Shown here one piece after another: positions 53,685-61,324 of a stretch of 64,000 nt of DNA (positions within the stretch are counted from its first letter, which is position 1; every line of letters begins with the position of its first letter). The position numbers were made by a program, and so were the translations under genes. A model generated the notes under the pieces. It saw only the letters and a program-made list of their open reading frames with translations, did no database searches and was not told the DNA's origin. The stretch is from an uncultured candidate division Zixibacteria bacterium (GTDB lineage Bacteria > Zixibacteria > MSB-5A5 > UBA10806): NCBI GenBank assembly GCA_963801605.1, contig CAWDFP010000007.1:32001-96000 (forward strand), given 5' to 3'.

Positions 53685-55064
53685 TTGGATACTTTAAGAG
53701 ATAAATGTGGTGTTTTCGGTATTTACGGGGTGCGAAACGCAGGCGCTTTGACATATCTCGGTCTTTATGCGCTGCAGCATCGCGGCCAGGAATCCTGCGG
53801 CATTATAACTGCCAATAACGGCGGTTTTCATTCCAGGCTGGGCATGGGACTGGTGAACGAGGTTTTTGCATCACCGGAGGATATAGAATCACTCAAAGGC
53901 CGCTCTGCGATCGGCCATAACAGGTATTCGACCACAGGCTCATCATCGCCGGAGAATATCCAGCCTCTGGTCATGAATTACAGCCGCGGATACCTGGCAA
54001 TCGGGCATAACGGCAATCTGACAAATTACCCGCGGGTCAAGCGCGAGCTTGAAAAAGCCGGTTCCATTTTGAGAACATCATCGGATACCGAAGTCATTTT
54101 GCATCTTTTGGCACGTTCCAAAAAGCAAAGGATCGAGCAGGCGCTGGCCGAATCGCTACAAAAGGTGGTTGGCGCCTACAGTTTAGTGCTTCTAACGCCC
54201 AGGCAGCTTGTGGCCGCCCGCGACCCTGCGGGGGTCCGTCCGCTGGCGTTAGGGCGGCGCCGTTCGAACTGGGTGGTGGCATCGGAAACATGCGCCTTCG
54301 ATATCATCGGAGCCAAATATGTCCGGGACGTTGAACCGGGCGAGATTATTGTAATCGATCAGGATGGCCTTCACAGTTACACCAATCTTCTGAAAAAAAG
54401 CCCGCATGCATTTTGTATATTCGAGTTGATATATTTTTCAAGGCCCGATTCAAAAATTTATGGCACCAATGTCGATAAGGTTCGTCGCCGGTTAGGACGG
54501 GCGTTAGCCAAAGAGCATCCGGTTGAGGCGGATATCGTCATCTCCGTGCCCGATAGTTCGAATACGGCGGCATTGGGATATTCGGAGGAATCCGGGATAC
54601 CATACGATATCGGATTAATCAGAAATCATTACGTGGGGCGAACCTTTATCCAGCCAGAGCAAAAAATCCGCGATCTCGATGTTAAGATTAAGTTTAATGT
54701 TGTCAAAGGTGTGATTAATAACAAACGGGTGGTAGTTGTAGATGATTCTCTGGTGCGAGGCACAACATCGAGGAAATTAGTTCAAATGCTTCGGGAAGCG
54801 GGCGCCAGGGAAGTTCATCTGAGGTTATCATCGCCACCGATAACAAATCCGTGCTTTTATGGAATCGATATGCCGACAAAAAGGGAGTTGATCGCATCCC
54901 GCAAATCTATAGAGGCTATCAGGCGTTATTTGGAGGCCGACTCTATAGGCTATTTGTCGCTCGATAGAATGCTCGATATGCCGTCTCTTCCCAAAGAAAG
55001 CTTTTGCCATGCCTGTTTCTCGGGAAAGTACCCTATCGATATTTATAATAGAGGGAAGAAGTAA
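53685..55064 (+). CDS. purF: Amidophosphoribosyltransferase
   Basis: Propeptide then CGVFG, LQHRGQE, GHNRYST, VVVDDSLVRG, C-terminal FCHACF. Confidence 0.97.
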   Translation: MDTLRDKCGVFGIYGVRNAGALTYLGLYALQHRGQESCGIITANNGGFHSRLGMGLVNEVFASPEDIESLKGRSAIGHNRYSTTGSSSPENIQPLVMNYSRGYLAIGHNGNLTNYPRVKRELEKAGSILRTSSDTEVILHLLARSKKQRIEQALAESLQKVVGAYSLVLLTPRQLVAARDPAGVRPLALGRRRSNWVVASETCAFDIIGAKYVRDVEPGEIIVIDQDGLHSYTNLLKKSPHAFCIFELIYFSRPDSKIYGTNVDKVRRRLGRALAKEHPVEADIVISVPDSSNTAALGYSEESGIPYDIGLIRNHYVGRTFIQPEQKIRDLDVKIKFNVVKGVINNKRVVVVDDSLVRGTTSRKLVQMLREAGAREVHLRLSSPPITNPCFYGIDMPTKRELIASRKSIEAIRRYLEADSIGYLSLDRMLDMPSLPKESFCHACFSGKYPIDIYNRGKK

Positions 55065-55154
55065 TCGCATAAATCAATTCTTTGGCGAGATTTGATTTCG
55101 GTTATTTCATTTTGTCGTTCTCCTTTTAAGGTTTTAAGGTTTACAGACGGACTT

Positions 55155-55182
55155 GTCAAATCTCCGAGGAGATTTGACCTAC
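55155..55182 (-). repeat. GTAG-type REP-like palindrome
   Basis: Minus strand reads GTAG-GTCAAATCTCC-TC-GGAGATTTGAC. Confidence 0.65.
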
Positions 55183-55211
55183 TATTTTTAGTTTCAAGTC
55201 CCCTTGCAGTA

Positions 55212-55430
55212 TTGTAAGGGGGAGGTCCCGGGACCGATAATCCCGCCGGAAAATGGCGGGCAAACCCTTTACAAGATGGGACCTGTCCTGACCTGCCTCC
55301 AGTTTCTCCTCTCTTTGGAGAGTCAAACTGACCTCCTTTGGGAGAAGCGATCCTGGCTGCCGGTTGAATCGACGACGATTCCGGGGGACCCCTGTGGGTC
55401 CCGAGAGGACAGCCACCTGTAGGGAAGGTC
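55212..55430 (+). ncRNA. Candidate multi-stem structured RNA of unknown family
   Basis: Three-way junction at 55212-55274 and a six-helix domain at 55280-55430 (see findings); strand is tentative. Confidence 0.4.
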
Positions 55431-55602
55431 TTGTGGCCACAATTGTCCTTCCACTTATAAGCCTCTATAAATCAAAATGCACTTTGAACGCGTTTTGGAG
55501 GATTCTAAGAGCGTGGAGGAAAATAGAGAAATCGGCGTTCACGGAGAGAAAGGGATTCTGCGGGAATGCAAATAAAGTAAATTGGTGCGCATAGCGTACG
55601 CC

Positions 55603-55751
55603 AGACTGTTGACAATTAGTCATTTCGAGAATTGTTGCTTATAAGAGCATATTTCTTTTTTGCTTAAGGTGTAAGGGCGTATTGCAATACGCCCCTACAA
55701 CAAAATGATTAAATTTCGAATGCGATAAATCAATGACTTTGTAAACAATCT
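55603..55751. mobile_element. MITE-like element with imperfect terminal inverted repeats and an internal REP
   Basis: Left end AGACTGTTGACAATTAGTCATT vs right-end reverse complement AGATTGTTTACAAAGTCATT; flanked by two copies of TGGTGCGCATAGCG. Confidence 0.5.
55671..55698. repeat. GTAG-type REP-like palindrome
   Basis: GTAAGGGCGTATTGCAATACGCCCCTAC; perfect 20-bp palindrome core, ends in CTAC. Confidence 0.75.
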
Positions 55752-55753
55752 CT

Positions 55754-55774
55754 GGTGCGCATAGCGCACCCTAC
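55754..55774 (-). repeat. GTAG-type REP-like palindrome (degenerate copy at 55584-55602)
   Basis: GGTGCGC-ATA-GCGCACC-CTAC. Confidence 0.65.
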
Positions 55775-56066
55775 ACGGGTTTGTCGAAACCTATCATTCG
55801 ATTTTTCAGTTGACCGCAAGCTTTGGATTTGCAGATTAAGGCAGGGCATATAGAGATATCCCCCTGCGAAATCCATATTAAGAATAATTTGGAATATTGC
55901 GGGGATTATCGCCCAATTAAAGTCGACAAGAACGCGGTTTACCGAGCTTGATTCGGCAGATTATTACAGCATTCATTATTCATCATATTTAAAAATAATT
56001 ACAATGCGTATAAATCCTAATGTCTTGAAGGATTTTACGGTTTTGCGGGCTAATATTTGAAAAGAC

Positions 56067-56112: not shown

Positions 56113-56186
56113 GGGCCCATAGCTCAGTTGGTTAGAGCAGCAGACTCATAATCTGCGGGTCCCAGGTTCGAGCCCTGGTGGGCCCA
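56113..56186 (+). tRNA. tRNA with CAT anticodon, most likely tRNA-Ile2 (lysidine)
   Basis: Acceptor GGGCCCA/TGGGCCC, anticodon arm GCAGA-CT-CAT-AA-TCTGC; lacks initiator features (C1 mismatch, three G-C pairs). Confidence 0.92.
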
Positions 56187-56206
56187 TGTTGAGCGAAAGT
56201 TAGCGT

Positions 56207-56283
56207 GGGCGATTAGCTCAGCTGGTTAGAGCGTTCGGTTCACATCCGAAAGGTCACTGGTTCAAGTCCAGTATTGCCCACCA
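56207..56283 (+). tRNA. tRNA-Val(CAC), CCA encoded
   Basis: Acceptor GGGCGAT/ATTGCCC, anticodon arm TTCGG-TT-CAC-AT-CCGAA, ends ACCA. Confidence 0.96.
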
Positions 56284-57268: not shown

Positions 57269-58729
<1,461 letters not shown>

Positions 58730-59357: not shown

Positions 59358-61324
59358 ATGAAAGAGCAACAAGAGATAAAGACACTCGCCTTATCGCCGG
59401 TTATTCTGGTTGGCAATCCGAACGTAGGTAAATCGGCATTGTTTGGAGCTCTCTCGGGTAAATATGTCGAGGTTTCAAACTATCCGGGCACGACGGTTGA
59501 TTTTTCAGCAGGCTGGATTAAAGCCGATGGCCAGAGGCGCGAGATATTCGATTCACCGGGGGCCGATACCTTATCGCCGGTCTCCGAAGACGAAATCGTG
59601 ACCCGCGATCTGATCCTGGATTATCCTGATTCGCCAATAATTTATGTAATCGATGCCAAGAATATTATTCGCGGTTTGGTACTGCTTTCGCAGTTAGCCG
59701 AGTATAGGCGCAAGGTCATAGTGGCGCTCAATATGATGGATGAATCGGCGGCGGCCGGGACGGTTATCGATACCGCGGCTCTTTCAAGGGTATTAGGAGT
59801 CCCGGTTATTCCCACAGTGGCGGTTCAGAGATCGGGAATCGAGGAGCTTAAGAAAGCCATAGCATCGGCGGCTGTTCCCAATTTAGTATTCGATTTTGGA
59901 AAGATGATTGAAGATGGTATCACCCGCATTGCCGGAATACTGGGAAAAAAATCGAATAATTACCCGCGGGCTTTCGCTTAGTTATTTGAGCGGCGAAAAC
60001 GGGTTTTCGGATGAAATTAAAAAATATATATCGTCGGATAAGTTAGGGAATATTTCCGAAATCAAATCCCGACTTCAAAGCTCGCATGTAGAACCGTTGG
60101 GATTTATAATCGCGAAAACCAGAAACGTCGAAGCCCAAAGATTCCTGACGCCTTTTATTAAGCACAAAGAATCGGGTTCCGGGCGGTTTATGCGATCGAT
60201 GGGAAGATATTCGCATCATCCGTTATGGGGCATACCGTCTCTTTTGTTGATACTTGTGGGACTGTACTATTTTGTCGGGGTCTTTGGCGCTCAAACTTTG
60301 GTCGGATTATTCGAAAAGAAGTTGTTTGGCGGCTTCATCAATCCCTTTTTTATCAAGTTATTTTCATATTTACCCTGGGCTTTTCTGCGGGATTTATTTA
60401 TCGGTCAATACGGAATTATCACGATGGCGTTGACCTATGCCTTGGCGCTCATATTTCCAATCGTGACGACTTTTTTCCTGGCTTTCGGAATTCTAGAGGA
60501 TTCCGGATATCTGCCTCGTCTGGCGTTCATGGTGGATCGCATATTCAAGAAGATCGGCCTTAACGGCCGGGCCGTGCTGCCTATGATTCTGGGTCTGGGA
60601 TGCGATACCATGGCGGTTCTGACCACCCGGATACTATCGACAAAAAAAGAAAAACTGATGGTTACATTTCTTCTGGCGCTGGCGGTACCCTGTTCGGCAC
60701 AACTGGGCGTCACGCTTGGTATCCTGGGAGCAATATCGCCGCTGGCTATAGCAATCTGGCTGGGAGTGATTCTGGCGGTTATGTTTTTAGTCGGATATTT
60801 ATCATCAAAAGTAATTCCAGGGCGGTCATCCGATTTTATTCTGGAGATCCCGCCGCTTCGCCTGCCGCGATTACAAAATGTGATTGTTAAGACTCTAATG
60901 CGTCTGGAATGGTATCTTGAAAGAGGCGGTCCCGCTGTTTGTTCTGGGGACGTTGATCCTTTTTATACTCGATAAGCTCCATTTTCTAAAATTAGTGCAG
61001 GAGGCGTTTAGTCCAATAGTGGTTACCGTACTTGGTCTTCCCGCGAAAGCATCCGAGTCATTTATAATGGGCTTTTTGCGGCGCGATTACGGGGCAGCCG
61101 GTTTTAAGGGATTATTCGATCAGGGGCTGCTCGATCCGGTGGGGGCGATTGTGGCCATGACCACGATCACATTGTTTGTCCCCTGTATCGCCAATTTCTT
61201 CGTGATCGTAAAGGAGCGGGGCGTTAAAACGGCTATCGGCATGGTTTTGTTTATTATTCCTTTCGCAATAGCTGTGGGAGGAGCCTTGAATCTCATTTTG
61301 AGAGGATTTGGGCTATGGCAGTAA
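59358..61324 (+). CDS. feoB: Ferrous iron transporter FeoB; apparent +1 frameshifts near 59948 and 60915
   Basis: GNPNVGKS, NYPGTT, DSPG, NMMD (GTPase); LEDSGYLPR, GLGC, VPCSAQ, FILEIPP, FVPCIA. Confidence 0.95.

Follow-up and report, generated by a model that had tools for sequence, protein, structure and literature searches.

What does a GC-rich, foldable stretch without a credible gene do in an intergenic gap of an uncultured Zixibacteria genome? The stretch lies within 64,000 nucleotides of contiguous DNA (the window; its genome is called G000 here), and a first-pass annotation made from the sequence had read positions 55280-55430 as an unrecognized multibranched RNA, either a novel noncoding RNA or part of a mobile element. 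Much of what it described is there. All the arms that it listed are found where it placed them; GC content is 60%, compared with 35 to 39% in the flanks; and the region folds better than dinucleotide shuffles on both strands (plus, z −2.27, 4/200 as good; minus, z −3.25, 1/200). A 94-codon minus-strand ORF exists, and by eye its frame is lost in other copies, in keeping with the claim that no credible ORF is present. The window was not matched at the gathering threshold in Rfam 15, which includes ROOL, GOLLD, OLE, HEARO, and riboswitches, and the gap gave just three chance-level matches (E 4 to 7). A search for homologues and covariation, the check that had been proposed, returned related copies with stems that covary. 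Since there is no Rfam family, the stems covary, and several copies sit at nonorthologous sites, the proposal was broadly right and both of its halves seem to apply, but the strand, the boundaries, and most of the helices were wrong. The real association of the element, a control motif in common with capsid operons of viral origin at other genomic locations, is invisible from the window alone. We lean toward the view that this is an accessory mobile RNA gene, likely co-induced with genes for particles resembling a gene transfer agent (GTA), whose transcript would oligomerize through two symmetric kissing loops.

A duplicated unit in a repeat-rich gap

The predicted RNA, about 257 nt with inferred ends, occupies 55198-55454 of the minus strand; it folds better than its shuffles (z −3.30, 1/200 as good) and shows covariation. 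The duplicated unit, which is the conserved extent in the window, runs from approximately 55153 to 55552, so the boundaries 55280-55430 were too narrow and enclosed the variable middle. According to the motif, the element is on the minus strand, opposite to the strand first read. Its upstream flank (55497-55552, minus) was copied along with it and is partly common to the upstream region of a protease operon. At the other end, a GTAG-type REP-like hairpin with independent dispersed copies (55155-55182, minus) abuts the 3′ end of the element. Further hairpins of this type lie at 55583-55610, 55670-55699, and 55753-55775. The segments 55602-55752 and 55753-55844 each have one more copy elsewhere in the genome, making the gap a mosaic of repeats.

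A core gene, which we take from its sequence to be purF-like (53685-55064, plus), is convergent with the element, and tRNA-Met(CAT) and tRNA-Val(CAC) occupy 56113-56280 (plus). The minus strand of 55088-55125 carries AAAGGAG, a Shine-Dalgarno-like sequence found 3′ of the REP in most copies of G000 and of G001, a genome of the same genus; an ORF of 2 to 6 codons sometimes stands behind it, Met-Lys-stop in two copies. At 57269-58729 and 59358-61324, genes that we presume to be IMP-dehydrogenase-like and FeoB-like are each broken across several frames, which suggests indel errors in the assembly. The same errors may explain a 1-base insertion that breaks the first palindrome of the C7:368k copy.

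Copies and distribution

Six full dispersed copies are present in G000, in two subfamilies with about 92 to 94% and 76% identity to the window copy, and G001 has three, of which two are full and one lies at the edge of a contig. A search with covariance model R1 added copies from G006, G009, G012, and G003. Searching by the motif alone brought in G002 with three copies, G004 with six, and G008 and G013 with four divergent forms between them. Elements thus occur in 10 of the 14 genomes of one Zixibacteria family, 8 of them with a clear core, at 0 to 6 copies per genome; none was found in G005, G007, G010, or G011. The 27 copies that we examined, including the four divergent forms, are 80 to 290 nt long. 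An Rfam search of seven loci with G002, G004, and G009 copies returned tRNAs only. As judged by sequence, the element is a previously uncatalogued multicopy RNA gene of one family of uncultured Zixibacteria.

Outside the family, a pattern scan of 275 phylum genomes gave nothing convincing, with one outside match left unread, and the same was true of a scan of 150 genomes with model R2, which could miss distant forms. Six weak R2 matches (E 0.003 to 0.025) were rejected, having neither the motif nor the palindromes. Of 73 loose-motif sites in the sister family, we read 30, all of them without an element. Genome scans produced 41 matches, of which only 2, both G001-type loci, are homologous; one further scan produced 14, comprising 6 known family loci and 8 in unrelated phyla that we took as chance without inspection. 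The metagenome scan had two matches, one a true G001-type copy (L049) and the other chance. Pattern scans of viral contigs gave 0 matches, and blastn against plasmids and phages found nothing.

RNA architecture and covariation

The copies share a plan: a stem, P1, with an apical palindrome; an optional stem, P3; then arm b, palindrome 2, b′, and b″, often followed by an A-rich tail. P1 (55423-55452, minus; GGAAGG/CCUUCC) would hide the Shine-Dalgarno-like 5′ end of the RNA. It is kept in all core-type copies, and 2 of its 6 pairs change on both sides. By eye, no start codon or frame is kept across copies behind the hidden Shine-Dalgarno, as a small ORF of a type I toxin-antitoxin system would require. 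P3 (55275-55417, minus; arms 55407-55417 and 55275-55288) has a 3-nt GUC/GUA bulge and closes a variable domain; it occurs as GGUGG/CCACC, GAUGG/CCAUC, and GGUAG/CUACC, is missing in G002, and is a short hairpin in G004. The insert that it closes (55289-55406, minus) is the region first annotated. It contains covarying hairpins at 55385-55402 and 55366-55381 and is dispensable: about 16 nt remain in G006 and G009, and none in G002. The 3′ domain (55200-55274, minus) consists of arm b (55265-55274), an optional hairpin (55242-55260), b′ (55212-55221), and b″ (55200-55209), and in all 21 copies that have palindrome 2, b′ could pair with either b or b″. In the C11 copy (L027:4640-4946), one hairpin is tandemly duplicated and the optional 3′ hairpin is missing, changes that illustrate modular gain and loss of stems.

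Over 8 aligned copies, 98.3% of cells pair, both partners change in 7 of 52 pairs, and the covariation score was reached by 0 of 500 shuffles; this support is overstated because the sequences are related and the structure was derived from those 8 sequences. The multibranched fold proposed earlier has an energy of −51.7 kcal/mol, compared with −64.5 for the MFE. Two of its helices, AATCG/CGATT and GGGACCC/GGGTCCC, hold over the 8 copies with compensatory changes, but no other does: neither the closing stem GACCTGTCCT/AGGGAAGGTC nor the TGGCTG/CAGCCA helix is conserved, and the arms of both have other pairing partners. The two C(UUUG)G loops exist in the window but are not conserved, the first occurring in 2 of 6 G000 copies and the second being confined to the copy in the window. 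Readings as an HDV-like, hammerhead, or hairpin ribozyme were set aside by eye, the core motifs being missing, as was a GGUCCC/GGGACC pseudoknot, an arm of which is lost in G006.

Truncated or divergent copies exist (G012, G002_c, and G008_b/c), as would be seen if the elements were decayed duplicates of operon promoters with fortuitous hairpins. Compensatory changes and a single architecture across four genera speak against such decay; covariation already largely refutes a relic, and we consider this explanation highly improbable.

An upstream motif shared with capsid, packaging, and lysis operons

Every copy is immediately preceded, at a fixed distance, by a promoter-like motif of GCATT, about 16 nt, and YATAA (55455-55496, minus, in the window). 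G000 has nine exact sites, namely, those of the six elements and of only three operons. One of these operons carries the genes for portal and terminase, another those for a protease-like protein and the major head protein, and the third that for an endolysin-like M15 peptidase. "Protease" is our reading of a protein whose PHROG function is unknown. A matrix trained on 8 virion and lysis upstream regions from six other genomes, one of them a close relative, ranked the nine sites at 33 to 42 bits, with the next best at 19. The motif is kept ahead of the orthologous operons in relatives. It lies 10 to 40 nt before the operon start codons, which suggests that it is a promoter; 55455-55496 has no sigma-70 consensus site. 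Its position would have transcription run along the minus strand of the window from about 55454. In five of seven genomes, the element motif is closest to the operons of its own genome (0.94, 0.83, 0.86, 0.77, and 0.69, the last, from G004, being marginal). Against the reading that we favor, the element motifs of G006 and G009 are nearer the operons of G008 than their own.

In G000, the protease-like/head/neck and portal-terminase operons lie at C6:1311685-1319620 and C6:1334379-1337937, and the distant endolysin-like gene lies at C6:363529-364080. The major head gene is matched once per genome in 118 of 121 genomes of the phylum, with 56 to 82% identity, and its best viral relatives are about 32% identical. 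Agents of the RcGTA type have single-copy, chromosomal, widely inherited virion genes. The Zixibacteria virion genes are likewise single copy, chromosomal, and widely inherited and have no close viral relative. By distribution and gene identity, the split capsid system is GTA-like and phylum-wide; particle production and DNA transfer are predictions. The element is likely transcribed when these particles are built because it has the same upstream motif as the capsid, packaging, and lysis operons. The motif would be read by a dedicated factor, and the nine-site regulon would represent a putative promoter of an undescribed GTA-like system in Zixibacteria. Between the operons, C6:1326257-1326751 encodes a 164-aa protein with a sigma region 4 (Pfam score below cutoff) that has strong single matches in 22 of 24 genomes of the order. 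We regard it as only a candidate regulator of the regulon because it is unlinked to the cluster in G006.

The 5′ end of the RNA is identical to the Shine-Dalgarno region of the operons. This identity would suit sibling regulatory sRNAs that tune particle output, whether by pairing of the P1 anti-Shine-Dalgarno arm (CCUUCC) with the protease and endolysin mRNAs at their 5′ ends or by titration of the late regulator, and multicopy sibling sRNAs are a known pattern. However, the match is only 6 to 7 nt and is already paired inside P1, and two self-complementary loops together with free gain and loss of domains would go unexplained. Regulation of this kind is, in our view, quite unlikely.

Palindromic loops and predicted dimerization

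Two loops are predicted kissing sites. Palindrome 1, the apical loop of P1 (55431-55442, minus), is self-complementary over at least 8 nt, with differing sequence, in 24 of the 27 copies; palindrome 2 (55224-55235, minus), with an RTCC-NN-GGAY core, is found in 21. The former is missing in 3 copies and the latter in 6, including all four divergent G008/G013 forms. Centers of palindrome 1 are GGCC, GCGC, CCGG, ACGU, and GCGU, with no conserved sequence. Those of palindrome 2 are CG, GC, AT, and TG (CCGG, CGCG, CAUG, and CUGG), TG being self-complementary only through G-U on the promoter strand. The centers covary from one palindrome to another, as in a kissing-loop RNA. For a baseline, 4-nt centers between 4-bp arms in G000 are self-complementary in 938 of 14,267 cases (6.6%), or in 13.5% with G-U, a comparison in which our loops were defined after inspection and the copies are related. 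By analogy, such symmetry would mark the RNA as one with symmetric kissing loops; within a single molecule, neighboring loop bases are unable to pair. Kretsch et al. treat palindrome switching as evidence for intermolecular kissing in OLE and GOLLD (bioRxiv 10.1101/2024.12.08.627333). The computed homodimer gain for 11 of the 27 copies was −14.7 to −20.7 kcal/mol, compared with −8.8 to −11.2 for shuffles, and was above that of the shuffles in 11/11. Counting against an oligomerizing RNA, palindrome 1 is weak in individual sequences (shuffle P of 0.002 to 0.97; ≤0.05 in 6 of 27).

Folding does not fix the strand, and the assignment therefore rests on the motif and on loops with G-U pairs. The RNAalifold consensus is slightly better on the plus strand (−71.9, versus −69.7 on the minus strand), which goes against our reading, as does an A-C mismatch in the b/b′ helix of the promoter strand; the opposite strand would have a G-U pair there. 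In G004, G009, and G012, symmetry needs promoter-strand G-U and fails on the opposite strand: palindrome 2 of G004 extends over 14 nt on the promoter strand and 6 to 8 nt on the other, and palindrome 1 of G009 and G012 extends over 12 and 2 nt, respectively.

The fixed TCC-NN-GGA core of palindrome 2 also fits a dimeric DNA-binding site, a further point against an RNA. Together with the shared motif and the variable, defense-like genes seen by eye upstream of several copies, it would suit start sites for DNA packaging: transcription initiated at the late promoter would extrude cruciforms or make TCC-NN-GGA accessible to terminase, DNA next to the element would be packaged in preference, and the cassette would thereby spread. 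But the sequence of palindrome 1 is not conserved, some of the symmetries need G-U pairs and hold on one strand only, and packaging does not need long covarying domains of an RNA type. We judge this distinctly unlikely.

If the element is an accessory RNA, as we favor, a minus-strand transcript would be made from about 55454 while the cell builds particles, and the loops of palindromes 1 and 2 would kiss, joining the RNA into dimers or chains. As transcription ends, b′ may swap b for b″, freeing palindrome 2, and the oligomers would accompany particle assembly as accessory or passenger. Since the RNA was found in one family only, against a phylum-wide capsid system, it is probably not an essential part of the motor. 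The smallest natural forms measure about 80 nt and have two swappable palindromic loops, which makes dimerization and particle association directly testable in vitro. A bolder version, in which a small self-polymerizing RNA lives on a domesticated virus and is switched on together with the phylum-wide GTA-like capsid system, with kissing-loop oligomers packaged in the particles or scaffolding their assembly and the gene spreading as a mobile promoter-plus-RNA cassette, seems to us possible but doubtful. If true, a gene transfer agent would have an RNA as its partner or parasite, an arrangement of which we found no description in the literature searched.

Mobility and genomic sites

Elements are present or absent at orthologous sites. 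In G001, the purF-like gene runs directly into the tRNA pair, an empty site from which the whole gap is missing. Of the 23 foreign copies, 6 have no mappable flank, and 16 of the 17 informative ones map >11 kb from any G000 copy or to contigs without one; the remaining one, in G004, shares the tRNA pair of the window but points the other way. Upstream DNA was copied too, so a DNA route of movement is likely. The promoter-plus-RNA cassette would likely be copied as DNA into REP-rich gaps, tending to point toward the 3′ end of a core gene.

REP and REPIN sequences with RAYT, and MITEs, are dispersed, palindrome-rich, and intergenic, at variable sites. The element resembles them in all of these respects and often lies beside REPs: REP-like sites are near 10 of the 27 copies, compared with 1.8% of random windows. 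Furthermore, copy number varies from 0 to 6 at nonorthologous sites, both strands fold equally well, and G000 has one Y1_Tnp gene. All this would be consistent with nonautonomous, MITE- or REPIN-like DNA that moves single stranded via an HUH enzyme, its hairpins acting in DNA and the GTA motif captured incidentally. However, 17 of the 27 copies are without a REP-like site by a strict rule, and the Y1_Tnp locus has no matching REP. A REPIN, two inverted REP units with a matching REP flanking the RAYT gene, was not found here; the REP lies outside the conserved core. The six G000 copies, whose ends are approximate, have no shared target duplication or terminal inverted repeat. Symmetry inside a loop is useless to a DNA hairpin, and the virion-operon motif, internal to the cassette, holds a constant spacing in all copies and varies in step with the operons. 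Given also the multihelix covarying fold, which such elements lack, mobile DNA of this kind is an unlikely explanation.

The first-pass annotation had suggested looking for reverse transcriptase or IS110 neighbors. No such link was found: PF00078 (RVT_1) and PF02371 (Transposase_20) had no match in the 87%-complete G000, and by eye no partner genes of bridge RNAs, retrons, or OMEGA systems lie next to the copies.

Comparison with known RNAs

By analogy, the predicted RNA works like ROOL, GOLLD, and OLE, and loosely like phi29 pRNA; it fails membership of each. ROOL, GOLLD, and OLE have symmetric kissing loops whose centers switch between GGCC, GAUC, and AGCU, and ROOL is encoded in prophages and phages (bioRxiv 10.1101/2024.12.08.627333). 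The likeness, predicted symmetric kissing loops with palindrome-switching centers, is one of working only. Those RNAs are several hundred nucleotides long and form Rfam families, whereas the Zixibacteria RNA is short, unmatched in Rfam, multicopy, dispersed, and tied by its motif to host-owned capsid operons. The small pRNA of the phi29 DNA-packaging motor oligomerizes through two loops, left and right pairing together into a ring (PMC4707685); each loop of the Zixibacteria RNA, in contrast, is self-complementary. Cross-loop complementarity of the pRNA type was not found in the copies, nor, by eye, was cross-loop covariation. The phi29 pRNA is essential and phage encoded. An RNA of that kind would be present wherever the packaging motor is; this one is in 10/14 family genomes, whereas the capsid is in 118/121 phylum genomes.

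Short natural RNAs that form cages and filaments are reported in a preprint (bioRxiv 10.64898/2026.07.01.735769) and a review (PMC12990946). No paper on this RNA, or on a kissing-loop RNA of a GTA regulon, came up in a search of mainly open-access papers and the main text of preprints. For self-assembling bacterial RNAs, structures are available and functional leads are few; the present family gives one through a motif specific to capsid, packaging, and lysis operons.

Divergent forms and neighboring genes

The G013 and G008 loci L250, L251, L236, and L246 hold short, differently folded elements behind the same motif, with a CCCCGGGG-type loop and no palindrome 2; their homology to the core elements is uncertain. 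Two more motif sites (L241 and L276) run into N-gaps. By eye, several copies have variable, defense-like genes immediately upstream, where core DNA ends (L128:8119-9834, L129:8615-11917, L155:1651-2367, and L020), and the upstream genes in G009 look methylase- and Vsr-like. One mutase-like gene adjoins both the G013 copy and one G003 copy.
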